Shown piece by piece: positions 2,971 through 19,398 of a stretch of DNA of 64,000 bases (the first letter of the stretch is position 1; each line of letters begins with the position of its first letter). Below the pieces are notes generated by a model, which saw only the letters and a list, made by a program, of their open reading frames with translations, was not told the DNA's origin and ran no database searches. The stretch lies in assembly GCF_009931435.1 (NCBI RefSeq), contig NZ_CP043414.1; one strand, 5' to 3'. The position numbers and the translations under genes were made by a program. The DNA comes from Escherichia coli. Its GTDB lineage: Bacteria; Pseudomonadota; Gammaproteobacteria; Enterobacterales; Enterobacteriaceae.

Positions 2971-3304
2971 CACGATGTCTGAATCCTTGCCAAAAGTACT
3001 GCTGGCACTATACCAGAGAATGAACATACTGGATTGCTCCAGTGTTGTGAATGAACCGTAACGCAATAAAACATATTTACTGCAATTCTTTGGCTGGTTC
3101 TTTTACGAACATCGGAAACCTGCCGCTTAAACGGTGAGTATTGGCGATAAAAATCCAATAAAACGTTCAAGGCAAAAGTAAGAAACAGACAAAGCAAAGG
3201 CCGCTCACGATATAGCCAGATAAATGACGGGGATCAATTGGCTTACCCGCGATAAAATGTTACCATTCTGTTGCTTTTATGTATAAGAACAGGTAAGCCC
3301 TACC

Positions 3305-4705
3305 ATGCCACATTCCTACGATTACGATGCCATAGTAATAGGTTCCGGCCCCGGCGGCGAAGGCGCTGCAATGGGCCTGGTTAAGCAAGGTGCGCGCGTC
3401 GCAGTTATCGAGCGTTATCAAAATGTTGGCGGCGGTTGCACCCACTGGGGCACCATCCCGTCGAAAGCTCTCCGTCACGCCGTCAGCCGCATTATAGAAT
3501 TTAATCAAAACCCACTTTACAGCGACCATTCCCGACTGCTCCGCTCTTCTTTTGCCGATATCCTTAACCATGCCGATAACGTGATTAATCAACAAACACG
3601 TATGCGTCAGGGATTTTACGAACGTAATCACTGTGAAATATTGCAGGGGAACGCTCGCTTTGTTGACGAGCATACGTTGGCGCTGGATTGCCCGGACGGC
3701 AGCGTCGAAACACTAACCGCTGAAAAATTTGTTATTGCCTGTGGTTCTCGCCCTTATCATCCAACAGATGTTGATTTCACCCATCCACGCATTTACGACA
3801 GCGACTCAATTCTTAGCATGCACCACGAACCGCGCCATGTACTTATCTATGGTGCTGGAGTGATCGGCTGTGAATATGCGTCGATCTTCCGCGGTATGGA
3901 TGTAAAAGTGGATCTGATCAACACCCGCGATCGTCTGCTGGCGTTTCTCGATCAGGAGATGTCAGATTCTCTCTCCTATCACTTCTGGAACAGTGGCGTA
4001 GTGATTCGTCACAACGAAGAGTACGAAAAGATCGAAGGCTGTGACGACGGTGTGATTATGCATCTGAAGTCGGGCAAAAAGCTGAAAGCCGACTGTCTTC
4101 TCTATGCCAACGGTCGTACCGGTAATACCGATTCGCTGGCGTTACAGAACATTGGGCTGGAAACTGACAGTCGTGGACAGCTGAAGGTCAACAGCATGTA
4201 TCAGACCGCACAGCCACACGTTTACGCGGTGGGCGACGTGATTGGTTATCCGAGCCTGGCGTCGGCGGCCTATGACCAGGGGCGCATTGCCGCGCAGGCG
4301 CTGGTGAAAGGCGAAGCCACCGCACATCTGATTGAAGATATCCCTACCGGTATTTACACCATCCCGGAAATCAGCTCTGTGGGCAAAACCGAACAGCAGC
4401 TGACCGCGATGAAAGTGCCATATGAAGTGGGCCGCGCCCAGTTCAAACATCTGGCACGCGCACAAATCGTCGGCATGAACGTGGGCACGCTGAAAATTTT
4501 GTTCCATCGGGAAACAAAAGAGATTCTGGGCATTCACTGCTTTGGCGAGCGCGCTGCCGAAATTATTCATATCGGTCAGGCGATTATGGAACAGAAAGGT
4601 GGCGGCAACACTATTGAGTACTTCGTCAACACCACCTTTAACTACCCGACGATGGCGGAAGCCTATCGGGTAGCCGCGTTAAACGGTTTAAACCGCCTGT
4701 TTTAA
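3305..4705 (+). CDS. sthA: Soluble pyridine nucleotide transhydrogenase
   Basis: 466-aa [28 protein letters not shown] with FAD/NAD-binding GxGxxG motifs; divergent from fabR. Confidence 0.95.
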
Positions 4706-5605
4706 CACTTTATCGAAATGGCCATCCATTCTTGCGCGGATGGCCTCTGCCAGCTGCTCATAGCGGCTGCGCAGCGGTGAGCCCGGACGATAAACCAGGC
4801 CAATAGTGCGGCGTGGTTCCGGCTTAATACACGGCAAATAAACAACCCCATCGCGTTTGCGCTCCGGCGGCACAGCCAGTGCAGGCAGTAAAGTGATCCC
4901 GCTACCTGCCGCCACCATGTTGCGCAGAGTTTCCAGGCTGGTCGCGCGGAAGTGTGTATCTTCATCCGCCCCGGCTTCAAAGCAGAAACCCATTGCCTGA
5001 TCGCGCAAACAGTGACCATCTTCCAGCATCAGCAGTTTTTCCCCTGCCAGATCGGCCATCGGTACGCATTCGCGGTTCGCCCACGGGTGATCTTCATAGA
5101 TAGCCAGCAACATTGGCTCATCAAACAACGGCACTTCAATGAATGCTTCGCTCTCTTTCACCAGCGCGAGGATCACGCAATCGAGTTTGCCGCTGTCCAG
5201 TTGCGCCAGTAACTGGTGGGTCTGTGCTTCATGCAGATACATTTCCAGCTTTGGAAAGGTCTGGTGCAGCATCGGGATAATATGCGGTAACAGGTAAGGC
5301 CCAACCGTTGGAATCAAACCAATATGCAGCGGTCCGGACATCGTCTCACCCTGCTGGCTTGCCATCTCTTTAAGGACTTTCACCTCACGCAGCACGGTAC
5401 GCGCCTGATCCACCAGCAGCATTCCCGCCTGGGTGAACAACACTTTACGGCTGGTCCGCTCCAGCAACATCACGCCCAGCTCATCTTCCAGCTTACGAAT
5501 TTGCCCGCTAAGCGTCGGCTGGCTAACGTGGCAGGAGTCTGCCGCACGCCGAAAATGGCGGTGTTCAGCCAATGCCACCAGGTACTCAAGATCACGAATA
5601 TTCAT
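4688..5605 (-). CDS. oxyR: LysR-family hydrogen peroxide-responsive regulator OxyR
   Basis: ORF 4688..5635; start placed at [44 protein letters not shown] (305 aa). Its 3' end overlaps the 3' end of sthA by about 18 nt, convergently. Confidence 0.95.
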
Positions 5606-5609
5606 TATC

Positions 5610-5700
5610 CATCCTCCATCGCCACGATAGTTCATGGCGATAGGTAGAATAGCAATGAACGATTATCCCTATCAAGCATTCTGACTGATAATTGCTCACA
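5610..5700. promoter_or_regulatory. oxyR-oxyS divergent promoter region with OxyR binding site
   Basis: Sequence gataggtagaatagcaatgaacgattatccctatcaagcattctgactgataattgctcaca lies between the oxyR start and the oxyS 5' end; recalled as the classical OxyR footprint. Confidence 0.6.
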
Positions 5701-5816
5701 GAAACGGAGCGGCACCTCTTTAACCCTTGAAGTCACTGCCCGTTTCGAGAGTTTCTCAACTCGAATAACTAAAGCCAACGTGAACTTTTGCGGATCTCCA
5801 GGATCCGCTTTTTTTT
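5701..5816 (+). ncRNA. oxyS: OxyS small regulatory RNA with its rho-independent terminator
   Basis: gaaacggagcggcacctctttaacccttgaagtcactgcccgtttcgagagtttctcaactcgaataactaaagccaacgtgaacttttgcggatctccaggatccgc followed by a T-run; divergent from oxyR. Confidence 0.85.
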
Positions 5817-5855
5817 ATTCTACAGGCCCACAGCAAGAGAGCCTGATAGTAACAG

Positions 5856-7139
5856 TTACTCAATCCGATCTTTGACAATAAAGAAGTAACACAGCGCCCC
5901 GGTGAATGTCACACAGGCCGCGATAACCAGCGCCAGATTAAACGAGTGCGTGGTATCCACTACCCAACCGGTTACGATCGGAGCAAAGGAAGCAAAAACA
6001 AAACTGCCAAAGTTTTGAATCCCGGCGATGGAAGCCACTTTTGTTTCTGACACCATCACCTGCACCAGTCCCCATGCAGATGTTCCCGCGAAATGCACGC
6101 AGAACAGCGCCATTGAGATAAACGCTACAGCCTGGGCTGGCGAGGAGGATTGCACGACCAGCAACGTGCCTAATGCCGACATCATCAAACCGCAGACAAT
6201 AGCCGTTTTACGCGTCTTCGCCAGGTCGTAGCCTTTTTTCGCCAGCCGATCGACAACAATACCGTTAACCCACATCCCGACCGCCGCCGCGAGGAAAGGA
6301 ATCGCCGCCACCCAACCGGTTTTCGCCAGACTGAAGCCTTGCTCGGCTTGTAAATAACCGGGTAACCACGCGATGTAGAGCCAACCGGTATAATTGACGC
6401 CAGAGAAACCTAAAATCATCCCCCAGGTTGTCCGATGCTTAAACAGCGCCAGCCACTCGCTAAATTGTAATTGTGGACGCGGTTTAACCGGCGCGGAGAG
6501 ATAGGTCCGTTCTTCGTCGGTCAGGACAAACTGCGCCCGGTTGCGATACCACGCGTACCAACAGATCCCAACCAGAATCCCCGCCACGCCGATGATGACG
6601 AACATTGCCCGCCAGCCCCATGCCAGCTGCATCAATACAAGAGCAGGAGGCGCAATAGCCTGACCGATAACGGTAGATGAGTTAAAAATCCCCAGCGCCG
6701 TGCCGCGTTCTTTTTGCGCATACCAGTCGGTGATCGACTTTACTCCCGCAGGCATAAATGGCGCTTCGCCAATACCCAGACCGATACGCATTAAAATAAA
6801 GTGGCTAAAAGAATTAACCATTCCTGTTAATGCCTGCATTAATGACCAGAATATTAAGCCTGCGCCTAAAACTATTCGTGGGCCAAAGCGGTCTAGCAAA
6901 ATACCGGAAGGGAGTTGTGAAAAACCATAAGACAGAGAAAATGCAGAAAGCAAAACGCCAAATTCTGTCGCCGATAATCCTAACTCGCCACGAATCGCTT
7001 CGCCTGCCACGCTCAATGACGAACGGTCGAGGAAATTAACGATCCCCGCCATAAATAATAAAACCAGCGTTACTGTCTGAATACGACGAATCCGTTGCGG
7101 TTTATTACCCGCAACACTGGTTGACACATCAACGTCCAT
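5856..7139 (-). CDS. MFS transporter of the anion:cation symporter type (hexuronate/sugar-acid transporter-like, DgoT/GudP/ExuT-like)
   Basis: 427-aa ORF with about 12 hydrophobic segments; N-terminal region LVLLFMAGIVNFLDRSSLSVAGEAIRGELGLSATEFGVLLSAFSLSYGFSQLPSGILLDRFGPR is typical of this family. Not in the K-12 oxyS-argH interval. Confidence 0.85.
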   Translation of the reverse strand: MDVDVSTSVAGNKPQRIRRIQTVTLVLLFMAGIVNFLDRSSLSVAGEAIRGELGLSATEFGVLLSAFSLSYGFSQLPSGILLDRFGPRIVLGAGLIFWSLMQALTGMVNSFSHFILMRIGLGIGEAPFMPAGVKSITDWYAQKERGTALGIFNSSTVIGQAIAPPALVLMQLAWGWRAMFVIIGVAGILVGICWYAWYRNRAQFVLTDEERTYLSAPVKPRPQLQFSEWLALFKHRTTWGMILGFSGVNYTGWLYIAWLPGYLQAEQGFSLAKTGWVAAIPFLAAAVGMWVNGIVVDRLAKKGYDLAKTRKTAIVCGLMMSALGTLLVVQSSSPAQAVAFISMALFCVHFAGTSAWGLVQVMVSETKVASIAGIQNFGSFVFASFAPIVTGWVVDTTHSFNLALVIAACVTFTGALCYFFIVKDRIE

Positions 7140-7205
7140 TTTTAGCTCCTTGAGCGGAATTAATCGATTTGCTGACTATTCAGAAAATAATTAAGCGAAC
7201 CGTTA

Positions 7206-8420
7206 TTACCAGTTCCACAATGTGCCATCTTCCAGTCGTGCGACGGGGAGATACGCCGGGTCATACGGATATTTCGCCGCCAGTTTCTCATCGAAAGAAA
7301 TACCCAGCCCCGGTTCATCGCCTGGGTGCATATAACCTTCATCGAAGCGCCAGCTGTGCGGGAAGACTTCAAGCATTTGTTCGGAATAGCCCATGTACTC
7401 CTGAACACCAAAGTTTGGCACCCAGAGGTCAAAATGCAGCGCCGCCGCATGACAAACAGGCGATAAATCTGAAGGGCCATGCGAACCGGTACGTACCTGA
7501 TAAAGCGATGCAAAATCGGCAATCCGTCGCATCCCGGTAATGCCGCCTGCATGGGTAATCGTCGTGCGAATATAGTCAATCAGCTGCTCTTCGATTAACT
7601 GCTTGCAGTCCCAGATACTGTTAAACACTTCACCGACCGCAATCGGCGTCACAGTATGCTGGCGAATCAGACGAAAACATTCCTGGTTCTCGGCAGGCGT
7701 CGGATCTTCCATCCACAACAGGCGGTAATCCTCAATGCTCTTCCCAAAGCGCGCCGCTTCGATAGGAGTCAGGCGATGGTGCATGTCATGCAACAGATGT
7801 TCGTTAAAACCGAACTTATTACGCACCGCTTCAAATAACTTCGGTGTAAAATCGAGATACTTTTCTGAAGACCACAACTGCTCTTCCGGCCACAGGCCTT
7901 TGGTTGCCGGTTCATACGCCAGTCCTTTGCCCTTCGCCAGGCCATAAGTGGTTTGCATACCCGGTACACCGCACTGCACACGAATCGCCTTAAAGCCCAT
8001 CTGCTGGTGCTTTGCATAGTCTTCAAGGACTTCATCAATCGTGCGCCCGGTGGTGTGGCAATAAACCATCACGCCTTCACGAGAAGCCCCACCAAGCAGT
8101 TGATACAATGGCATATTTGCCGCTTTGGCTTTGATATCCCACAACGCCATATCAATGGCAGAAATGGCCGACATCGTGACGGGGCCACGTCGCCAGTAAG
8201 CACCTTTATAAAAGAATTGCCAGATATCTTCGATACGGCTGGCATCGCGGCCAATTAATTGTGGACAAAGATGATCTTTCAGATAAGAAGCGACCGACAA
8301 TTCGCGACCATTTAATGTGGCATCTCCCAATCCACAAATTCCGCTTGCAGTGGTTATTTTAAGCGTAACGAAATTACGTCCTGGGCAAGTAACAAAAACA
8401 TCTGCAGCAATAATTTTCAT
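7206..8420 (-). CDS. Enolase-superfamily sugar-acid dehydratase, RspA/ManD (D-mannonate dehydratase)-like
   Basis: ORF 7206..8480; start placed at [47 protein letters not shown] (404 aa), closely resembling RspA/ManD N-termini. Likely co-transcribed with the MFS gene downstream. Confidence 0.85.
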
Positions 8421-8789
8421 TATTGCAATCTCCTGTGTTGTAAATAGACGCTTCAAACTTAATTTTACGCCTACTACCATACAAGAGAGAAAGGGCGATT
8501 ATTCAACCGTGATCACATTAAAAATAAAAATTTCCGCCGAGGAACAAAAATATCCTCAAATCTCACCTACACTATTAACTACCATCGTTAAAACAACGTG
8601 TTAAATAATCACATAACAAATTCCTTTAAGGAAAGGAGTTATAACAACAACAAAAGATAATCATATTTTACTTAATTCAATACGTATCGATAGGTTTATT
8701 TAAAAAGGATTTTTCGGAATGAGAGATGAAAAGAAGATACACAAGCAGGAAGAAATACGATTAATATTAGTTGCGGTAAGGGTAGCCGT

Positions 8790-8910
8790 TCCTCCCTTCC
8801 GCAACCCATTAACCGTTGAAGTCACAGACTATTTCAGGCATTTCTCAACTCAAAATAACGACAGCCAACGTGAACTTTATGGCTCTCCAGGATCTGCTTT
8901 GTTTTCCATC
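8790..8910 (+). repeat. Degenerate second copy of the oxyS 3' half (oxyS-like relic)
   Basis: 8813-8905 ccgttgaagtcacagactatttcaggcatttctcaactcaaaataacgacagccaacgtgaactttatggctctccaggatctgctttgttttcc aligns to oxyS 5725-5816 at roughly 75-80 percent identity by eye; the 5' part of oxyS is not recognisable. Confidence 0.7.
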
Positions 8911-10387
8911 AAACAACGGAGCTCAGCGCACTGGCTACCTGTTTAAAGCGAGCAAACCGTCGCCTGAGCATGTGTGCTTTTTCTACATTCGGTTCAAGAC
9001 GAATCACGTTGAGCTGCGTAGCCTTCATGGCCTGTTTGAATCCAGAATAAGCCCCTCCTCCTACTGCCGCACACATTGCAGCCGCTCTACAACCTGACTG
9101 TTCAATATCGACAATTTCAAGAGGCATTTTGCTGGCATCACAAAACATCTGCATCCAGATTCTGGAATGCGTTGGCCCGCCAGAGAAACGAATCGTTTGC
9201 AATGACTTATCAATCTCAATAAGACGGTCCTGATGCAACAAATGAGAAAAGACAACGCCCTGATAAATAGCGTACACCAAATCTTCTCTTTTATGATGCC
9301 CACACAGCCCCAAAAATCCCCCGCTTAATGCCTCATGGTAATTCGAGCCAAACAACCACGGGAAAAAGAGAATATCATTCTGTTTCTCATACCCTCGTTC
9401 CACCCACTCATTAATCACCCGATAACTGTCAGGAAGACCCGGTAAAAATTGCTGCAAGAACCATGTTAAATTACTGGCTGATGTAGGGCTTCCCTCATGG
9501 GCGAAAAATGTACCTGGAATGCTAAATTTCCCCCATACATAGGGATAATCAGAAGGAATAATGCGATCAAAGATTCGCGTTGCAATTGACCAGGTGCCAG
9601 CAACCGCACTTAACGTTGTACTGTCATAGATGCCAGAAGTGAGCGCCGCACCAACGACATCAAAAACACCACCAAAAACAGGCGTTCCGGCGAGAAGCCC
9701 ACATTGGCTGGCTGCTTCAGATGTCACAAACCCAGCTAAATCAGCGGAGCCAATAATATCGGGAACCTTACCCGCAACTTCCTTAATCTCAAATAGGCGA
9801 AAAAGTTCAGCATCATAAGCACTGGTATATTGATTATAAAAATTACTGCCTGAAATATTGGTTTCTTCACAAGCCAGTTTGCCAGTAAGCCGTGAACGTA
9901 TGTAATCATGAACCATCAAAATGGTTCCGATGCGGCCATAATTGTCAGTCTCATGTTTTTTCAACCAATGCAATAGTGCTACAGGGTGCGATGGCCAGAG
10001 CTGTTGCAGACTACGGTGATAACTTTCGCGGTCAATTCCTTGTTCTTTCCAGCTTGCAACCAGTTGTTGTGCGCGAGAATCAGAGGAAACAATGCCGTGT
10101 CGTAAGGGCTTACCTTGCCGGTCGAGCAGGTACAAACCTTTACCATGAGCAGAAAAACTGATGCCATCAATCTGACTCGCAGTAATATTGTTATCTGACA
10201 TCGACAGTGAAATGACCTGGCACGTTACCTTCCATAACGCCTCCATGTCGCGTTCGCAAAAACCAGGACATGGGCTTAACAGAGGTAACGCCTGCGAAGA
10301 GACACCTATTTCACGTCCTTCTGCCGTATAAATTCCCGCTTTGGTTTCTGTACCACCTAAATCGACACCAATAAAATACCGCTCCAT
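8909..10387 (-). CDS. FGGY-family carbohydrate kinase, L-xylulose/3-keto-L-gulonate kinase (LyxK)-like
   Basis: 492-aa ORF MERYFIGVDLGGTETKAGIYTAEGREIGV...; FGGY motifs and strong resemblance to LyxK throughout (DMAELW, HDYIR, EASPTSSGNL-like blocks). Confidence 0.85.
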   Translation of the reverse strand: MERYFIGVDLGGTETKAGIYTAEGREIGVSSQALPLLSPCPGFCERDMEALWKVTCQVISLSMSDNNITASQIDGISFSAHGKGLYLLDRQGKPLRHGIVSSDSRAQQLVASWKEQGIDRESYHRSLQQLWPSHPVALLHWLKKHETDNYGRIGTILMVHDYIRSRLTGKLACEETNISGSNFYNQYTSAYDAELFRLFEIKEVAGKVPDIIGSADLAGFVTSEAASQCGLLAGTPVFGGVFDVVGAALTSGIYDSTTLSAVAGTWSIATRIFDRIIPSDYPYVWGKFSIPGTFFAHEGSPTSASNLTWFLQQFLPGLPDSYRVINEWVERGYEKQNDILFFPWLFGSNYHEALSGGFLGLCGHHKREDLVYAIYQGVVFSHLLHQDRLIEIDKSLQTIRFSGGPTHSRIWMQMFCDASKMPLEIVDIEQSGCRAAAMCAAVGGGAYSGFKQAMKATQLNVIRLEPNVEKAHMLRRRFARFKQVASALSSVV

Positions 10388-10403
10388 GATCCCTCCTTAG
10401 TTT

Positions 10404-11267
10404 CTAAATATTATCCCAGCCGGCAAGGCGCATTTTCTCTTCAATCCATTGACGTGCATGAATAATTTCTAATAGAGGTTCCGTCGCTTTTTCTGTCCAC
10501 ATTTCTATCAGAAACGTTCCGCGATAATTAAGATTACGCAGGATCTTAAATAATTTAATAAAATCTACACACCCTTCACCAAAAGGAACGTCACGAAATT
10601 GCCCTGGAGAATCAGGCGTTACTGGGTACGTATCTTTAAGATGGATTGCGGCAATTCGATCAATCCCCTTTACCAGCTCACTTTCCAGTTCATTACCCCA
10701 TGCGGTCAGATTGCCAACATCCGGATAAACGGTAAACCAAGGGGAATTAATTTTTGTATCCAGGACTTTCCATTTACTAATAGAATTAATAAATGGCGTA
10801 TCCATGATCTCTACAGCACACATAACTTGTGCCGCTGCGGCCTGTTCAGCTGTCCAGGCCATCGCATCTTCAAACCAGGCGATAGTTTCTTCATTCTGCG
10901 GCTCATAATAAACGTCATAGCCTGCCAGTTGGATTGTTCGAATCCCCAAATCCTGCGCCAGGCGTAACGCCTTCAACATAATCGTACGTGCCTGCTGACG
11001 AGTATCTCTATCATGGCTACCAAATGGAAAACGCCGGTGAGCAGACAGGCACATTGTCGGAATACGGATCCCCGTTTGCTGAATGGCGCTAATAAGCTCC
11101 ATACGCTCGGTGAGCGACCAGTCCAGGCGGGCGAGTCGTTCATCATTCTCATCTACCGACATCTCAACAAAATCAAAACCGCAAGATTTAGCCAGGGCTA
11201 GTTTCTCTACCCAACTGGTATTCCTGGGTAGCGCTTTTTCATAAATACCTAACGGGTGGCGTCGCAT
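10404..11267 (-). CDS. L-ribulose-5-phosphate 3-epimerase (UlaE/SgbU family, xylose-isomerase-like TIM barrel)
   Basis: 287-aa ORF LGIYEKALP...GFDFVEMSVDENDERLARLDWS...MCLSAHRRFPFGS...IQLAGYDVYYE...YPDVGNLTAW...LIEMW, matching UlaE/SgbU nearly block for block. Confidence 0.85.
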   Translation of the reverse strand: MRRHPLGIYEKALPRNTSWVEKLALAKSCGFDFVEMSVDENDERLARLDWSLTERMELISAIQQTGIRIPTMCLSAHRRFPFGSHDRDTRQQARTIMLKALRLAQDLGIRTIQLAGYDVYYEPQNEETIAWFEDAMAWTAEQAAAAQVMCAVEIMDTPFINSISKWKVLDTKINSPWFTVYPDVGNLTAWGNELESELVKGIDRIAAIHLKDTYPVTPDSPGQFRDVPFGEGCVDFIKLFKILRNLNYRGTFLIEMWTEKATEPLLEIIHARQWIEEKMRLAGWDNI

Positions 11268-12343
11268 TATTTTCCCTCACGAGTGATCAATTGTTGTTGA
11301 AAGATTTTCCGGCTCTTATTCATGTCACGCTGCAACTGCCATTTTTGTTTGATGAATTTAAATGCCAGTGCGGCGATCAATGTGATCCCCCATACCGCCA
11401 GATTGAAATGCAAACTAAGTCCCAACAGACTAAGGCCGGTAGCAATAACCTGAAGCACAAGTAAGGCACAAAAAACATGACTGACTTTACCCGCCCCACC
11501 GAATGGATCTGTGCCTCCCAATACAATTGCAAGAACCGTCAAGAGCAGATAGGAATCGCCATAGCCCATACGCGCCGAATTAAATCGCGCGAGCATAATA
11601 AGACCTGCTAATACACACAACATGCTGGATATAGCATATATAGCAATTAATACGCGGTCGGTGCGAATACCGCTAAACCATGTGGCGTTAATATTACTGC
11701 CACACATATAAATCGTTTTTCCCGTACGGGTTTTGCCGAGGAACAGAGCTAAAGCAACGGTGGTGACGATAAAAATTATCATCGGTACTGGGATCCCCAT
11801 GATAACTTCAGACCCAATACTGCGGACTACTGGTGGCATACCACTTAAAGCTGCCCCCTTAGTCAGGTAAATACCGATACCACTAATAATGGTCATGCTA
11901 CCCAATGTGACCAAAATAGGGTGAGCGCCTATATGAGAAATAATTGACCCAGTAATAGCTCCAATGATGATGGCAATAAGCATCGCCCCGACAATAGCCA
12001 GGAAGAGCCAAAACAACTGACTACCTGTAGATGCATCTGCGGGTACATATTGAATCAACAGCCAGGCCATAAACAGGCTGGTCAGATTCGCAGTACCGAT
12101 GATTGCCAGATTGAGCCCCCCGCTCAACATGGGTATAAACATCGCAAACGTGAGCAACCCAAGCTCTGGCAATTGAAATGCAATGCTCAGAAAAGTATTG
12201 CCGGTGAAAAAACGCCCCGGCATTACCAGACTAAATAACACCACCGCAATAAAACATATTGATAATAAGCCTGAACTGGTACCATCTAGTGGAAAAAATA
12301 TCCGCTTGTTCATTTCGATCCTCCCGTTAGACGAAACCAACAT
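11267..12343 (-). CDS. Sugar ABC transporter permease (ribose/xylose-type)
   Basis: 358-aa polytopic membrane ORF in an operon with a second permease and a two-domain ATPase. True start may be the internal MNKRIFF Met, since the first codons overlap the upstream permease. Confidence 0.8.
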   Translation of the reverse strand: MLVSSNGRIEMNKRIFFPLDGTSSGLLSICFIAVVLFSLVMPGRFFTGNTFLSIAFQLPELGLLTFAMFIPMLSGGLNLAIIGTANLTSLFMAWLLIQYVPADASTGSQLFWLFLAIVGAMLIAIIIGAITGSIISHIGAHPILVTLGSMTIISGIGIYLTKGAALSGMPPVVRSIGSEVIMGIPVPMIIFIVTTVALALFLGKTRTGKTIYMCGSNINATWFSGIRTDRVLIAIYAISSMLCVLAGLIMLARFNSARMGYGDSYLLLTVLAIVLGGTDPFGGAGKVSHVFCALLVLQVIATGLSLLGLSLHFNLAVWGITLIAALAFKFIKQKWQLQRDMNKSRKIFQQQLITREGK

Positions 12344-13319
12344 CAGTTTCTTTACGTTTTTTGTAATGGGTCACACAAATCGCCGAGACAATAACCACTC
12401 CAATAACGATATTGACGAAATAACTCGAGATGCCAATCAAATTAAGGCCGTTTTTAAGAATACCGATAAGAAATACGCCCATAAGCGTACCAATGACCGT
12501 ACCACGTCCGCCTGATAAACTGGCACCGCCCAATACCGCTGCAGCCAGCACATCCAACTCTCCGCCAACCAATGCATTCGGCACAACTTCACTCATACGA
12601 TAAGCTTGCAGCATTCCACCAATTGCTGCAGCGGCACCAAGATAACCATAAGCAAACAGATAAATTAGCGACACCCGAATCCCAATACGTCTTGCTGATT
12701 CGGTATTCCCTCCCACGGCATAAAGCTGACGCCCAATATGGGTTTTGTTCATTATCATCCACGTCAGAAATGCCATTCCCAGCATAACCACTAACGGTAA
12801 TCCGATCTGGTAATCTTCTCCGCCAAATTCAAAACTCAGGAAAGAACGCTGCGTAATCCACCAATCCGGTAAATCGTAAATACTGTGGCCATTAGTCAAC
12901 CACATCAACATACCGAACAGTAGCGACTGCATACTAATCGTAATGATGATGGAAACGACATTAAGGTAATAAATAAGAATAGCGTTTATCAAACCAAAAA
13001 TGATGCCAAGAAAAACAGCAAACACCAGACAGAAAAATGGATTTGATAGCGTTTCATTAAGCAGTAACGACGCCACAACATATTGCACAACCGAAGCTAC
13101 TGCTGCAAAAGAGATATCAATTCCGCCAGTAACCAATACGACAAATAATCCGAGGGCGAAAATACCCGTTACGGCATAACTTTCCGAGAGATCGAGCAAG
13201 TTCTGTATTGATAAAAACTCATCGCTCATGATGGAAAAAAATACCAGCATGAGAACAATGACCCATCCTAACCAAGCTTCGACTGAACGAGGAAACCGCA
13301 GCCGCATAAAGCTAACCAT
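12327..13319 (-). CDS. Sugar ABC transporter permease (ribose/xylose-type)
   Basis: 330-aa polytopic membrane ORF; start overlaps the ATPase stop (translational coupling). Confidence 0.8.
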   Translation of the reverse strand: MVSFMRLRFPRSVEAWLGWVIVLMLVFFSIMSDEFLSIQNLLDLSESYAVTGIFALGLFVVLVTGGIDISFAAVASVVQYVVASLLLNETLSNPFFCLVFAVFLGIIFGLINAILIYYLNVVSIIITISMQSLLFGMLMWLTNGHSIYDLPDWWITQRSFLSFEFGGEDYQIGLPLVVMLGMAFLTWMIMNKTHIGRQLYAVGGNTESARRIGIRVSLIYLFAYGYLGAAAAIGGMLQAYRMSEVVPNALVGGELDVLAAAVLGGASLSGGRGTVIGTLMGVFLIGILKNGLNLIGISSYFVNIVIGVVIVSAICVTHYKKRKETDVGFV

Positions 13320-14829
13320 TAATCACCTCCGCCAACTGCTGCTCGGTATAATTCGAAGGCAACAGCTCATTAATAATCTTTCCGCGCTTCATATGAAAAA
13401 TACGATCGCAGTTATAATAAGCTTCTGGTGCTTCATCAGTAATTAATATCACTGAAATACCCACACCTGAAAGCCGATGAATAAGCTGGTAAATACTATC
13501 TTTTGCGCCAATATCTACACCTACCGTTGGCGCATCCAGAATTAAAACCTTAGGTCGTGTTAAAATCCATTTAGCCAGGACAACCTTTTGTTGATTGCCG
13601 CCAGATAGCGTTGAAAGTGGATTATTTGGATCGGTGACTTTAATATCCAAATCCTGGATCCACTCCTTGACTAAGGTTTCTTTTCGATTTTCATCAATAA
13701 ACCCCGATGCCGTCTTTAAACGATCCAGAATCGAGAGCACCATATTATCGCTGATAGATTGGGGTAATACGGCCCCCAGTGTCAGGCGATCTTCTGAAAC
13801 ATATGCTATTCCCAGTTTTACCGCATGCGTGTTGTCTTTAATTGTAACGGGCTTACCTTCCAGATAAATATCACCACTATCTGGTCGAGTAATACCGAAA
13901 AGACTCAATGCTAATTCAGTTCTCCCCGCACCAAGTAAACCACACAATCCCAGAACCTCGCCCTGGTGTAGTTTTAGAGAAACATCTTCAAATTGCCCTT
14001 TTCTGCATAATTTGTTTAGTTCAAGGACTACTTTGCCTTCAACGCTATTTGGTAGCTTCTTCTGGTGGACTATAGTTTTTCCGGTCATTAACTCAGTAAT
14101 ATCGCCCGGAGAAAGTTGATTGGCAGCCCACGTTCCAATTATCTCTCCATCACGGATGACCGTAATCCGATCTGAAATTTCCTTAACTTCATCAAGGCGG
14201 TGGCTAACAAAAACTACGGTAATATTTTTATCGCGTAAGTAATTCACTGTGCGTAGTAATTGATTAACTTCTGTACGCGTCAATGATGCCGTTGGCTCGT
14301 CCATGATGACTAACCGGGCATCGGCAATCAGAGCCCGGCAAATCGCGACCTGTTGGCGTTGTGCAATCGGCAAATGTTGTACTAACGCATCAGGATCGAG
14401 ATTGAATTGCAGCTCCTGAATTATTTTCTGCGATACATCTCGAAGTTGTTTTTTTCTGTGCAGCCCTAAATATCCCTTCAGGTTGTATTCAAAAGCGATA
14501 TTTTCAGCAACAGAAAGATTTGGGAATAAAGAAAGATCCTGATATATCACCTGAATACCCAGTTCCCGAGCTTTATCAGGAGAAAGACGAGTCCAGGACT
14601 TACCATCTATAATAATTTCACTTCCCGAATCAGGGACATAAACACCACACAGCGTTTTGATCAGAGTACTTTTACCACACCCATTCGCACCAGCAAGACA
14701 ATGAACCTCACCTTTATTTAAGGTAAGATTGATATTCTTTAGAGCCCTATGGCCACCGAAACTTTTCGTTAGTGACCTTAGCGTCACTAATGGTTGCTCC
14801 GCATTCTTCTCTATAATATGAGGCATCAT
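13312..14829 (-). CDS. Sugar ABC transporter ATP-binding protein with duplicated ABC domains (RbsA/MglA type)
   Basis: 505-aa ORF with two Walker A sites (GANGCGKST and GLLGAGRTEL) and two signature motifs (LSGGNQQK region). Confidence 0.88.
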   Translation of the reverse strand: MMPHIIEKNAEQPLVTLRSLTKSFGGHRALKNINLTLNKGEVHCLAGANGCGKSTLIKTLCGVYVPDSGSEIIIDGKSWTRLSPDKARELGIQVIYQDLSLFPNLSVAENIAFEYNLKGYLGLHRKKQLRDVSQKIIQELQFNLDPDALVQHLPIAQRQQVAICRALIADARLVIMDEPTASLTRTEVNQLLRTVNYLRDKNITVVFVSHRLDEVKEISDRITVIRDGEIIGTWAANQLSPGDITELMTGKTIVHQKKLPNSVEGKVVLELNKLCRKGQFEDVSLKLHQGEVLGLCGLLGAGRTELALSLFGITRPDSGDIYLEGKPVTIKDNTHAVKLGIAYVSEDRLTLGAVLPQSISDNMVLSILDRLKTASGFIDENRKETLVKEWIQDLDIKVTDPNNPLSTLSGGNQQKVVLAKWILTRPKVLILDAPTVGVDIGAKDSIYQLIHRLSGVGISVILITDEAPEAYYNCDRIFHMKRGKIINELLPSNYTEQQLAEVING

Positions 14830-14892
14830 AATATTCCTGAATACGACTAAAGGAATTCCGGGTCAAATTTGACCCGGTGATTTACGGTAAAA

Positions 14893-15897
14893 TTACAAGC
14901 CTAGCTTCACTAAACGTCGTGTATTTTCAAGATCGAGCTTTTCTGGATTATCACTATAAATAGTGTTGTTATTAACCTTGATCTCGCCCATATCACCGAT
15001 TTTTACACCGTCTTTAATAGGTTCACCGTTCATCATTGCCGTCGCAACCTGGACAAAAACCTTACCCGCAATCATAGGGTTTGAAATATATCCCCCATCA
15101 ATGGCACCTTTTTCGAGTAGCTTAATTCCCTGACCTGGAGTGAAGGTTCCAAAAACGCAAATTGCATCATTTTTCTTCCGCTTATCAATAGCACGCCCCG
15201 CACCAATTGGTCCTTGTGAACCAAATGACATAATGCCTTTAAGATCTTTATATTTAGACATTAAATCGTTCGTCGTGCGCATTGAATCATCCACCGACTC
15301 AGCAACACCAAAACGATCTTCAACCAACGTCATATTTGGATAATGTTCTTTTTGATAGGCAATCGCGGCATTGGCCCAGTCATTTACCAAAGGCACAGTC
15401 AGACTGCCGACAAACATGGCGTATTTACCTTCTTCGCCCATACACTTCGCCATATCTTTCATATGATTGGCACCCATTGTCTGGGTATTTAACAACTCAA
15501 AATCCCAATCTGCATTTTTTTGATCTGGTGATTCGTGGGTAATAACTTTAATACCGGCTTCTTGTGCACGCTTAAGTACAGGTTCAAGAACCTTTGCATC
15601 GTTAGGAACAACACCAATAACATCCACTTTTCGTGCAATTAAATCTTCAATCGCCCGAACCTGTTCAGCTGGATCTGCCGTTGTAGGGCCGACCTGCCAT
15701 GCATCAACCCCCAATAGTTTTCCTTCATTTTTAATGCCTTGTTCCATCACATTAAACCAGGGAATTCCACCGACTTTTACTACTACCCCCATCGTAAAAG
15801 GTTTATTCGCTTTTTGTGATGTTACAGTCTGATCAGCCCATGCAGCAGTGGAAGATAATACGGTAGCAATAAGGCAGGGTAAGATTAATTTTTTCAT
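14893..15897 (-). CDS. Periplasmic sugar-binding protein of the ABC transporter
   Basis: 334-aa ORF with signal peptide MKKLILPCLIATVLSSTAAWA and a periplasmic-binding-protein type I fold pattern; first gene after the regulator. Confidence 0.8.
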   Translation of the reverse strand: MKKLILPCLIATVLSSTAAWADQTVTSQKANKPFTMGVVVKVGGIPWFNVMEQGIKNEGKLLGVDAWQVGPTTADPAEQVRAIEDLIARKVDVIGVVPNDAKVLEPVLKRAQEAGIKVITHESPDQKNADWDFELLNTQTMGANHMKDMAKCMGEEGKYAMFVGSLTVPLVNDWANAAIAYQKEHYPNMTLVEDRFGVAESVDDSMRTTNDLMSKYKDLKGIMSFGSQGPIGAGRAIDKRKKNDAICVFGTFTPGQGIKLLEKGAIDGGYISNPMIAGKVFVQVATAMMNGEPIKDGVKIGDMGEIKVNNNTIYSDNPEKLDLENTRRLVKLGL

Positions 15898-16019
15898 CGT
15901 AATTTCCTTAAGAAATAGTTCAGGTGTCAGGAAAACTCGATATAATATCGACCTGACTATTTATATAATTTATAATCCCTTAGGCATTGATTAATAATTT
16001 AGACAATAAATAACGCCTA

Positions 16020-16829
16020 TTATTTATCAACCTCCACAATGTTTAATTGTGGAAATTGTGTTCGATACCGAGTATCTGTACAAACATTAGTCACCAGAAT
16101 ATCGATTTCATCCAGCGTGCATATTTTACTAAATGCATACTGTTCAAACTTAGTGGAGTCGACCAGCAATATTTTTTGTCCTGACACCTGAAGCATCACC
16201 TGTTTAAGTCTGGCATTAATTTCACTGCCATCGCGGACACCATTCCCCAGATTCAACCCCTGGCATGAAAAGAAAAAACTGTTGATTTGAAAATTTCGGA
16301 TCGCACTCTCTGCAACCGGGCCATGAAAATCATCATGTCGCTCAGAATACTCACCACCGATACCAATAATTCGAACTCGATCACGGCAAGCTAACGCCTG
16401 AATTATCCGTAATGAATTTGTAACTACGGTAACATCTATATCGGGAATTTGACGAGCTAAAAACCAACAAGTACTACTGTTATCCATTAAAATACAATCA
16501 CCAGGGTGAATAAATTGCAATGCGGCCTTCGCAATTCTGGCTTTTATATCAGGATTTTCTTCAGTCCGTTTACGGAATGATTCCGCACGATCGATACTAT
16601 TATCTTGCCACGCATTATCGGCGAGCATAACCGGAGCGCTATCAGATGAATCCAGAGCGACCGCGCCACCAAAGCTACGGATTAACTTTTTGTTGCGCTC
16701 CAGTACCGTTAAATCCCGACGAATTGTCTCAGGAGACGCTTTAAATAATCGTGATAATTCAGTTACCCGCACAGCACCTTGTTTTTGTACATGTGCGCAT
16801 ATCATTTTATGGCGCTCTGCCTGCAACAT
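16020..16829 (-). CDS. DeoR-family transcriptional regulator
   Basis: 269-aa ORF with N-terminal HTH (VRVTELSRLFKASPETIRRDLTVLERNKKLIRSFGGA) and a DeoR C-terminal sugar-phosphate-binding region. Confidence 0.85.
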   Translation of the reverse strand: MLQAERHKMICAHVQKQGAVRVTELSRLFKASPETIRRDLTVLERNKKLIRSFGGAVALDSSDSAPVMLADNAWQDNSIDRAESFRKRTEENPDIKARIAKAALQFIHPGDCILMDNSSTCWFLARQIPDIDVTVVTNSLRIIQALACRDRVRIIGIGGEYSERHDDFHGPVAESAIRNFQINSFFFSCQGLNLGNGVRDGSEINARLKQVMLQVSGQKILLVDSTKFEQYAFSKICTLDEIDILVTNVCTDTRYRTQFPQLNIVEVDK

Positions 16830-17270
16830 AGTATCGGTCCGTTATTATCAAATTAGCATGCTTATATAATTAACTGTTCCCTCATAAAATAAAGTGATAG
16901 GAATCAAGATTCATTTTATAATTATAATCGCAAACAGGAATGGTGATCTTTATCACAAATTAAATTGAGAACACTCTACTATTTGACATTACTTTGAGAT
17001 ATCGGTCACTAAATAAGTCTTATTCTGCCATCTAACGAAAAATTTAAATACAAAAACAAAAATAATCGGGCATAGCAATCGCTTCCATTCATGACCGAAT
17101 ACGCCCGAATAAAACCGTTTATACCCACTTATCCTCTTTCGTTGCCTTCTTACATGCCTTGAATATTTTACATTTCTTATATTCAGCGTAATTTAGGAAA
17201 CATAATTTATGAGCAAAAAAAGCCCAAACTCAAAAGTTAAAGTTTATTTATATAATACATACAGATTATC

Positions 17271-17975
17271 GTGGAGTTAAAAATGGATATGCTAAAGGAA
17301 AAAGTTCTTGCTGCGAATTTATCATTACCCCTTCATCAGTTAGTGACGTTTACCTGGGGAAATGTTAGTGGTGTTGATCGCGAAAAAGGTGTCATGGTTA
17401 TTAAACCTTCTGGGGTCGAATACAGCCAAATGGGCATTGCAGATATGGTGGTAGTGGATTTACAAAGTGGTGAAGTTATTGATGGACACAGGAAACCCTC
17501 TTCAGACACCGATACTCATCTGGCGCTATACCGTGCTTTCCCGGATATTGGTGGTATCGTTCATACCCATTCCCGACACGCCACAATATGGGCTCAGGCC
17601 GGAAAAGATCTCACGGCCTTTGGGACAACCCACGCTGATTATTTCTACGGCACTATCCCCTGTACACGCCCCATGAAGGATGACGAAATTAATGGACAAT
17701 ATGAATATGAAACGGGGCGAGTGATTATTGAAACGTTCAGACAACGAGAAATATCTCCCGCTGACATTCCGGCTGTTTTAGTAAACAGTCATGGCCCCTT
17801 TGCCTGGGGAACTGATCCCGCGAACGCCGTGCATAACGCCGTTGTACTTGAAGAAATTGCCTATATGAATCTCTTTACACAACAACTACAGCCCCATCTT
17901 ACGGCTATTCAACAGCCTCTACTGGATAAGCATTTTTTACGCAAGCATGGTGCCAATGCTTATTACGGGCAGTAA
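17271..17975 (+). CDS. L-ribulose-5-phosphate 4-epimerase (AraD/SgbE/UlaF class II aldolase family)
   Basis: 234-aa ORF; [41 protein letters not shown]...[17 protein letters not shown]...[16 protein letters not shown]...HSHGPFAWG...[17 protein letters not shown] is very close to AraD. Start may be one of the downstream Mets. Confidence 0.88.
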
Positions 17976-18024: not shown

Positions 18025-19398
18025 TTACTCCAACCGCGCCTGCGCAAAAGCAATCGCCTGCGCCACCTGCTGCGGTGAGACGCCGCCTTTTGCCGCACGC
18101 TTGTCGAGGCACGATTGCAGCGACAGAATCGGATAGACATCTTCGCCAATCACCTGACTGAATTTCTGCAACTCACTGAGCGGCAGATCTTCCAGCGGTT
18201 TGCCCTGACGAATGGCTTCCACCACCGCTTCACCAACAATATGGTGCGCCTCGCGGAACGGCACACCTTTCGCCACCAGGTAATCCGCCAGTTCAGTGGC
18301 GTTCGCATACCCCTGCTGCGCCGCTTCCTGGCAACGTGGGCGTTTCACCTGAATGCCGTCCAGCACCAGCGCCGCCATATGCAGGCAGTCCAGCCAGGTA
18401 TCGAGCGCGTCGAATAAGCCCTCTTTGTCTTCCTGCATATCTTTGTTGTAAGCCAGCGGCAAACCTTTCAGCGTCATCATCATGCCAGTCAACGCGCCCT
18501 GAACACGACCGCATTTACCCCGAATCAGCTCCAGCGCATCCGGGTTTTTCTTCTGCGGCATTAATGATGAACCGGAAGTCACGCGATCAGAAAGCTCCAC
18601 AAAACCCGCTTCGCCGGTGTTAAAGAAAATCAGATCTTCGGCAAAACGCGACAAATGCACCATACCGATAGCGGCGGCAGAAAGCAGTTCCAGCACGTGG
18701 TCGCGGTCAGAAACGCTGTCGAGACTGTTACGGGTCGCCGAGGCAAAGCCCAGCCAGCCTGCTAACTGTTCACGGTCGATTTCATAAGCCGTTCCCGCCA
18801 GTGCGCCACAGCCTAACGGGCTGACATCCAGACGCTTAAGCGCATCCTGCAAACGACTTTCATCACGCGCCAGCATCTCAACATAGGCCAGGCACCAGTG
18901 CGCGAACGTCACCGGCTGGGCGCGTTGCAGGTGAGTGTAACCAGGCATTACCGCGTCCTGATTATTCTGCGCGGTCTCGACCAGAGCGGATTGTAACTGT
19001 CGGTTAGCCGTCAGTAACTCGCTAACGGTATCTTTGCACCACAGTTTCAGGTCAGTCGCTACCTGATCATTACGGCTACGCCCGGTGTGCAGTTTTTTGC
19101 CTAACTGGCCCACTTTGTCGATCAGTTTGCCTTCTACCCAGCTATGGATATCTTCAGCGTCGCTTTCAAGAATTTGTTGTGGTCTGGCGCGAACATCTTC
19201 CAGCAGCACATTGAGCGCCTCTTCCAGTTGCACCTGTTCTTCTGCGGTTAACACGCCTACCGTTACCAGCGCTTTGGACCAGGCCACAGAGCCAACAATA
19301 TCCTGCTCCGCCAGACGGTAATCAAAGCGCAGTGAGTCGTTGAATTGTTTAAACCGTTGATCTGCTGCCTGGGTAAAACGCCCGCCCCAAAGTGCCAT
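18025..19398 (-). CDS. argH: Argininosuccinate lyase
   Basis: 457-aa [47 protein letters not shown], full-length ArgH. Confidence 0.95.

Follow-up and report, generated by a model that had tools for sequence, protein, structure and literature searches.

The window analysed here is a 64,000-nucleotide stretch of an Escherichia coli chromosome, in reversed orientation relative to K-12, and the element in question is a pair of genes on its minus strand: manD (7206-8420), which encodes an RspA-type dehydratase of the enolase superfamily, and a gene for a transporter of the major facilitator superfamily (MFS; 5856-7139). The pair is situated between oxyS and argH and corresponds to c4920-c4921 of strain CFT073. 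The explanation that best accounts for the evidence, and to which we give an even chance of being right, is that the pair is a self-contained two-gene operon for the catabolic uptake of D-mannonate and its dehydration to 2-keto-3-deoxy-D-gluconate (KDG), under a promoter derived from that of rspA.

In this scheme, the transporter, a member of the ACS family, would import D-mannonate along with a proton, and ManD would dehydrate it to KDG with the aid of Mg2+, a Tyr159-Arg147 base and a His214 acid. Cells process KDG through the core enzymes KdgK and Eda, and the product would be passed on to that route. Both genes would be transcribed from one promoter at ~8449-8520, which would descend from the rspA promoter, is probably under repression by RspR (YdfH), whose gene lies far away in the rsp/ydf locus, and probably needs an activator that reads a TGTGA motif, most likely CRP. 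As to origin, the pair would be an ancient excerpt of an operon of the rspA-MFS-rspB-ydfJ-ydfI type that became lodged between oxyS and argH.

The pair is a new member of known groups, namely the ManD subgroup, the ACS transporters and rsp-type regulation, and it is a fairly ordinary accessory sugar-acid module. RefSeq annotates its genes as ManD and MFS transporter. What the present analysis adds to a first-pass annotation of the window, made from the letters and their open reading frames (ORFs), is the likeness to an rsp-operon excerpt with an rspA-type promoter, RspR as a candidate regulator, and an alternation of ManD with UxuA that points to D-mannonate as the substrate.

The gene pair, its products and its distribution

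The two ORFs lie on the same strand at exactly the coordinates that the first-pass annotation had given for its two-gene pair (5856-7139 and 7206-8420). manD would be the first gene of the operon and the transporter gene the second; they are 66 bp apart, and a convincing terminator was not found in this gap. The ORF called mechanically for the dehydratase extends from 7206 to 8480, but its real start is the ATG at 8420, which has an AGGAG ahead of it, and the 404-residue product that begins there aligns over its full length with RspA and with other ManD proteins. The transporter gene, which encodes 427 residues, has a ribosome-binding site (AAGGAG) 7 nt ahead of its ATG. From oxyS (5701-5809) to the promoter region, a regulator, a KDG kinase and an aldolase are all absent, which bears out the earlier description of a module without dedicated genes for these functions.

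The dehydratase had been placed in the RspA/ManD type of the enolase superfamily, and this placement is supported by model scores, structural homologs and residue alignments alike. The protein scores 730.4 bits with the NCBIfam ManD equivalog NF043051, for which the cutoff is 550, and only 251 bits with a galactonate dehydratase model. In the PDB it matches 4il2, the RspA of CFT073 (E = 1.8e-269), and Pfam assigns the MR_MLE N-terminal capping domain (PF02746, E = 3.6e-34) and the C-terminal barrel (PF13378, E = 1.1e-45). Identity with E. coli RspA amounts to 369 of 404 residues (91%). In the alignments, ManD keeps R147, Y159, D212, H214, E238, E264, R285, H314, P316, E341 and W404, with D212, E238, E264, Y159, R147 and H214 in the expected motifs, as in 4il2 and 3ow1. 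We take D212, E238 and E264 to be the Mg2+ ligands, Tyr159 and Arg147 to be the base dyad and His214 to be the acid, roles that reportedly go back to work by Rakus et al. from 2007. Every known catalytic and ligand-contacting residue is identical between ManD and RspA.

ManD thus resembles the characterized members of its subgroup, i.e., NaManD (2qjj), CsManD (3ow1), RspA (4il2) and the Pectobacterium protein (4e4f), in its full-length alignment, Mg2+ ligands, Tyr-Arg dyad and His acid, and it retains Pro316, the equivalent of Pro317 in CsManD. It differs from them by ten substitutions that all members of the Escherichia manD clade share and no RspA orthologue has. Two of these, Q156 and L161, are located on either side of the catalytic Tyr159 in the active-site loop. 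In a phylogenetic tree, manD is placed in a clade by itself, apart from the RspA orthologues of every member of the Enterobacteriaceae that was sampled. Within E. coli, the synonymous divergence (dS) between manD and rspA is ~1.9. Because this value is saturated, the two genes are best read as old paralogues or xenologues and not as the products of a recent duplication.

The sole partner of the dehydratase had been described as an acid-sugar-type MFS transporter, and the protein does have the marks of a DgoT-related member of the ACS family: an MFS_1 fold (PF07690, E = 2.8e-56), 12 transmembrane helices and homology to DgoT. Its best PDB match is DgoT itself (6e9n; phmmer E = 4e-57 over residues 13-424). 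The equivalents of DgoT D46, R47 and E133, presumably the residues for proton coupling and carboxylate binding, are conserved, with LDR aligned to VDR and GEAP to FEAP. The top NCBIfam match, TIGR00893 (D-galactonate transporter subfamily), reaches 275.3 bits and falls under its cutoff of 395, so the protein belongs to the wider family and is not an orthologue of the galactonate transporter. The dgo operon, in which DgoT is accompanied by DgoD, offers a parallel, since it likewise combines an ACS acid-sugar/H+ symporter with an acid-sugar dehydratase of the enolase superfamily. However, dgo encodes its own kinase, aldolase and regulator, and the MFS of the window is only distantly related to DgoT. 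A paralogue of the transporter gene was not found in E. coli at the DNA level. YdfJ, which also has 427 residues, was considered as a paralogue and rejected, given an identity of 21% (E = 0.005) and the lack of a DNA-level relative.

The site between oxyS and argH occurs in three states among 5426 complete E. coli genomes. The insert is absent (K-12 type) from ~3560 of these and the pair is present in ~1860, or about a third, including the B2 strains CFT073 and O127:H6. In ~1714 of the carriers, e.g., ETEC-2264 and CFT073, the pair is the only insert (oxyR-oxyS-MFS-manD-argH), with nothing else between oxyS and argH, in keeping with the standalone status proposed for it earlier; in the other 146 genomes, as in the window, it is accompanied by an island of ABC transporter and kinase genes. 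The same site also holds the pair in E. whittamii and in the cryptic Escherichia clades. Both genes are under strong purifying selection. When the window allele is compared with those of other E. coli, the cryptic clades and E. whittamii, the ratio of nonsynonymous to synonymous divergence (dN/dS) is 0.017-0.059 for manD and 0.009-0.027 for the transporter gene, at dS values of up to 0.38. Full-length transporter genes make up 1800 of 1872 copies, and insertion sequences (ISs) interrupt the pair in a few genomes.

Ancestry, substrate and promoter

Close relatives of the transporter were found in 21 species-level genomes. Orthologues with 82–89% identity are found inside the rsp/ydf locus of Enterobacter, Pluralibacter, Klebsiella, Raoultella, Citrobacter, Lelliottia, Siccibacter and Atlantibacter, where the order is ynfA - [MFS] - rspA - rspB - YdfJ-type transporter(s) - (GPH transporter) - ydfI (fructuronate reductase) - ydfH (GntR, 228 aa) - ydfG. 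In Siccibacter, Lelliottia and one metagenome-assembled Enterobacter genome, the order is instead rspA-MFS-rspB and onwards, and Enterobacter sp. kpr-6 has an additional rspA-MFS pair adjoining ydfH. Taken together, an orthologous MFS (82–92% identity) shares its locus with rspA/manD at 15 of 17 enterobacterial loci, mostly in an adjacent position and in either order. The rsp loci of E. coli itself and of Pectobacterium are without this transporter. Co-location with rspB, a YdfJ-type transporter gene, ydfI and ydfH is a property of the orthologues in other genera and not of the module in the window.

The Escherichia arrangement recurs in Citrobacter sp. R56 as argH | promoter - manD - MFS | oxyR. 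In this genome manD has been deleted internally to codons 1-32 and 371-403 (8629-8880 of our locus L021), and the rsp-type promoter and the transporter gene are intact, which fits a single promoter driving both genes. Based on these comparisons, the pair looks like the promoter and first two genes of an rspA-MFS-rspB-ydfJ-ydfI type operon that was relocated long ago. With the rspAB(-ydfJ-ydfI)/RspR system of E. coli it has in common the 369 of 404 dehydratase residues, the promoter element TGTGA-N28-TTGTATGGTAGTAG and an equal distance between predicted start and ATG; moreover, the transporter belongs to the operon in other genera. In contrast to that system, the pair is located at oxyS|argH and is without rspB, ydfJ and ydfI, its ACS-type MFS is missing from the E. 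coli rsp locus and has just 21% identity with YdfJ, the RspR palindrome has not kept its left half, and the paralogues are ancient (dS ~1.9).

The nature of the substrate is suggested by a sister clade of the transporter (~70% identity), which emerged when the Rouxiella protein was used as query. In Rouxiella badensis, Klebsiella michiganensis (where the unit is IS-flanked), Pectobacterium zantedeschiae, Leminorella grimontii and Providencia stuartii, the sister transporter gene is followed within ~50 bp by a gene for UxuA, assigned by TIGR00695 in Rouxiella (644 bits) and by PF03786 in the other four. A divergent gene for a GntR/FCD regulator precedes the transporter gene in all five genera, and the flanks are otherwise unrelated. 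A Celerinatantimonas genome has the regulator and transporter only, and the neighborhoods of more distant transporter representatives (51–56% identity) provided nothing informative. These modules are like the Escherichia pair in transporter family and in their composition of an importer plus one mannonate dehydratase with nothing downstream. They differ in that the dehydratase is UxuA, of an unrelated fold, and in having their own divergent GntR, 29% identical to YdfH, whereas no regulator accompanies the Escherichia pair.

UxuA and ManD are structurally unrelated and catalyze the same reaction. Their exchange beside one transporter lineage, with nothing downstream, is typical of non-orthologous displacement in which the substrate, D-mannonate, stays the same. 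Because unrelated but isofunctional enzymes alternate beside the same transporter family, D-mannonate is the most likely cargo of the MFS. As a separate observation, the GntR | MFS-UxuA units (7992-11502 of locus L020; ~4000-7550 of loci L037-L040) appear to represent an undescribed mobile unit for mannonate utilisation.

The first-pass annotation had placed the promoter of the pair within 8421-8790 and its regulator elsewhere, and both placements find support. A region at ~8449-8520 is homologous to the K-12 rspA promoter. Within it is an rsp-type box, CTTGTATGGTAGTAG (8471-8485, minus strand), which is unique in the window, where 0.02 chance matches are expected. The K-12 rspA promoter has this 15-mer without change, as do ~25 promoters of genes in the rsp loci of 12 genera. 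The 15-mer contains the predicted -35 hexamer TTGTAT (8484-8479) as well as the right half of the RspR operator ATACnnGTAT. The predicted -10 hexamer, TAAGTT (8456-8461, minus strand), follows TTGTAT by 17 nt and was identified by homology in an alignment with K-12 rspA, whose promoter has TTGTAT and TAGATT as the -35 and -10 elements relative to the mapped start. The rspA-type promoter was at first suspected to have been lost to a 6-bp deletion; this was dismissed upon re-alignment, which showed the TTGTAT-17-TAAGTT architecture to be kept. Upstream, a TGTGA motif that resembles a CRP half-site (8513-8517, minus strand) lies 33 nt upstream of TTGTAT; the motif and this spacing are both invariant across all aligned rsp-type promoters. 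The composite TGTGA-N28-TTGTATGGTAGTAG is the same as in K-12 rspA in both sequence and spacing.

In K-12, RspR represses rspAB, and it protects 31 bp of the rspA promoter centered on ATACnnGTAT, with rspA transcription beginning 30 nt before the ATG (Shimada et al. 2021, PMC8249747). By analogy, transcription of the pair is predicted to start near 8450, also 30 nt before the ATG, which would center the TGTGA motif ~60 bp upstream of the start. A promoter that descends from the rspA promoter is probably repressed by RspR as well, and RspR is the candidate for the remote regulator of the pair; rspR is present in 5417 of the 5426 complete genomes and is ~1.5 Mb away. The right half of the RspR box (GTAT) and the next 8 bases (GGTAGTAG) match K-12 rspA, and the left half is TCTC versus ATAC. 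Since the same half-box also precedes transporter genes that lie inside rsp loci beside ydfH in other genera, the invariant block, and not the short palindrome, may be what matters. On a related note, a box of this kind, TTGTATGGTAGTTG, occurs at a third position in the rsp/ydf loci of Lelliottia and Raoultella (L015:12820 and L016:14193), between the YdfJ-type gene and a 491-aa gene that is ydfI-like by position. It is followed there by a possible inverted partner, TCATACCAA, which hints at several RspR-type operators per locus.

Competing explanations and significance

A number of points weigh against an operon for D-mannonate catabolism under RspR and CRP. Concerning the substrate, the transporter travels with rspB and ydfI, too, in most other genera, and what it carries there could therefore be a compound from further up the pathway, such as L-gulonate. 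UxuA is already present in E. coli, and the RspA of CFT073 (91% identical to ManD) was reportedly found by Wichelecki et al. in 2014 to be a low-efficiency D-mannonate dehydratase for which no physiological role was identified. With regard to regulation, the left half of the RspR palindrome has been lost, and RspR binding may be weak or absent. A search of the promoter for a full CRP palindrome with no more than two mismatches found none, as the second half-site is missing, and a generic sigma-70 scan called no consensus promoter. The latter two results fit a weak, activator-dependent promoter and do not prove control by CRP. Lastly, a literature search on the locus tags c4920 and c4921 retrieved nothing on the pair and confirmed only that argH is c4919.

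Some of the same facts could be accommodated if the pair were an auxiliary arm of the L-gulonate (rsp/ydf) pathway within one RspR regulon. The MFS would then import L-gulonate or another hexonate, the distant RspB and YdfI would convert it to D-mannonate, and ManD would be a second copy of the last enzyme, functional only in company with the rsp genes. The orthologous transporters inside rspA-rspB-ydfJ-ydfI operons beside ydfH (Enterobacter, Klebsiella, Raoultella, Citrobacter, Siccibacter, Lelliottia and Atlantibacter), the promoter box common to the pair and rspA, and the absence of the transporter from E. coli's own rsp locus all favor such an arm. We nevertheless consider it rather unlikely, as rsp operons are already supplied with a YdfJ-type transporter, sometimes two, and in many cases with a GPH transporter, Pectobacterium has a full rsp operon without this MFS, the sister clade is paired with UxuA alone and no dehydrogenases, and the Escherichia module retained the dehydratase and not a dehydrogenase. 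It is likewise unlikely, and slightly more so, that the true substrate of ManD is another acid sugar imported by the MFS, with weak activity on D-mannonate or D-gluconate representing promiscuity. The reported low efficiency of RspA-type enzymes and the lack of a physiological role for them, both attributed to the 2014 study by Wichelecki et al., would be explained in this way, as would the ten fixed manD-clade substitutions with Q156 and L161 beside Tyr159, and strong purifying selection in spite of UxuA implies a real function. Yet all known ligand-contacting and catalytic residues are the same as in RspA, and the UxuA-containing sister modules favor mannonate.

The pair might also be a silent, cryptic relic on its way to loss, with an AT-rich promoter, possibly bound by H-NS, that lacks a full operator. 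Its absence from ~66% of E. coli genomes, the occasional IS insertions, the internal deletion of manD in Citrobacter sp. R56 and an upstream region of 37–45% GC in which no consensus promoter was found are what one would expect of a relic, and related pathways are reportedly called cryptic in the abstract by Wichelecki et al. However, dN/dS values of 0.01-0.06 in both genes, at dS up to 0.38 and also between genera, the 1800 of 1872 transporter copies that are full length, and promoter motifs that are perfectly conserved make decay improbable. Least probable by far is that the pair is the distal end of the upstream ABC/FGGY-kinase/epimerase operon under the DeoR regulator of the island. The genes are on the same strand and directly upstream in the window, but the island accompanies only 146 of the ~1860 pairs, its GC content is ~44% versus ~50%, and a 488-bp AT-rich gap with an oxyS relic and manD's own conserved promoter intervenes. 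The epimerization of pentulose phosphates is, moreover, unrelated to the biochemistry of the pair. Control by the neighboring DeoR island is effectively excluded.

The promoter homology predicts a second target for RspR, one that is invisible to K-12-based studies. The enzymology of 2014 is said to have left open the physiological role of the RspA-type, or low-efficiency, ManD enzymes. A minimal module of importer and RspA-type dehydratase reduces that question to a single substrate that can be tested, given the strong purifying selection on the module and its counterparts, the importer-UxuA modules. In a broader and more tentative interpretation, which we hold with less than even confidence, the transporter lineage would be an unrecognised family of D-mannonate importers whose partner alternates between UxuA and RspA-type ManD, and the Escherichia pair would be the first context in which a "low-efficiency" ManD is the sole pathway-specific enzyme. 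RspA-type enzymes would thereby gain a physiological role, and RspR would have two targets in the third of E. coli that carries the pair, as opposed to the single target described for K-12. Carried as an accessory trait by roughly one in three E. coli strains, the pair could add to strain differences in the use of sugar acids in the gut or urinary tract.

The insertion site and its surroundings

To the left of the pair, in window coordinates, lie sthA (3305-4705, plus strand), oxyR (4688-5605, minus strand) and the oxyS small RNA (sRNA) gene (5701-5809, plus strand; Rfam RF00035, 133 bits). The last of these marks the left edge of the insertion site and is outside the module. The manD-MFS operon is convergent with oxyS, and after the transporter stop codon (5790-5870) there is only a weak hairpin and the antisense oxyS terminator. 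The 3′ end of the transcript would lie at 5790-5845 (minus strand), a region that comprises a hairpin at 5845-5823 followed by the oxyS terminator hairpin in antisense (5808-5790), with a predicted RNA fold of -27.3 kcal/mol (z = -2.5). Since the operon strand lacks a U-tract after the stop codon and the hairpins are weak or antisense, a transcript that reads through could run antisense across oxyS as far as the oxyR/oxyS control region. The arrangement is the same for argH in K-12.

Upstream of manD, the AT-rich gap (8421-8908) is followed by the ABC/kinase accessory block (8909-17975), of which the ABC, kinase and DeoR genes on the strand of the pair span 8909-16829, and then by argH (18025-19398, minus strand). 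The 8.5-kb island encodes an FGGY kinase, an L-ribulose-5-P 3-epimerase-like protein, two ABC permeases, an ATPase, a binding protein, a DeoR regulator and, divergently, an araD-like protein (L-ribulose-5-P 4-epimerase). This gene set resembles an L-xylulose or pentulose route to D-xylulose-5-P. The stop codon of the FGGY kinase gene is immediately followed, at the island junction and outside the module, by a degenerate copy of oxyS (8776-8898, plus strand) that is ~78% identical to oxyS over the transcribed part only. It was considered as a functional sRNA paralogue and rejected, with 30 bits for the Rfam OxyS model against a gathering score of 75, a broken terminator stem and no promoter homology.

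The degenerate oxyS copy is confined to genomes with the ABC/kinase island, which suggests that the island came from a donor in which it adjoined oxyS. The island is absent from ~92% of pair-carrying genomes, and its lower GC content (~44% against ~50%), together with the absence of the relic from genomes with manD and the transporter only, identifies it as a later, independent acquisition whose DeoR does not regulate the pair.

A second variable spot is located nearby, at 3067-3304 of the window. Between sthA and fabR, CFT073 (L026:30568-33525) and the cryptic Escherichia clades (L005-L007) have two extra genes, encoding an M20 aminoacylase and an MFS protein that resembles a citrate-proton symporter, which the strain of the window is without.

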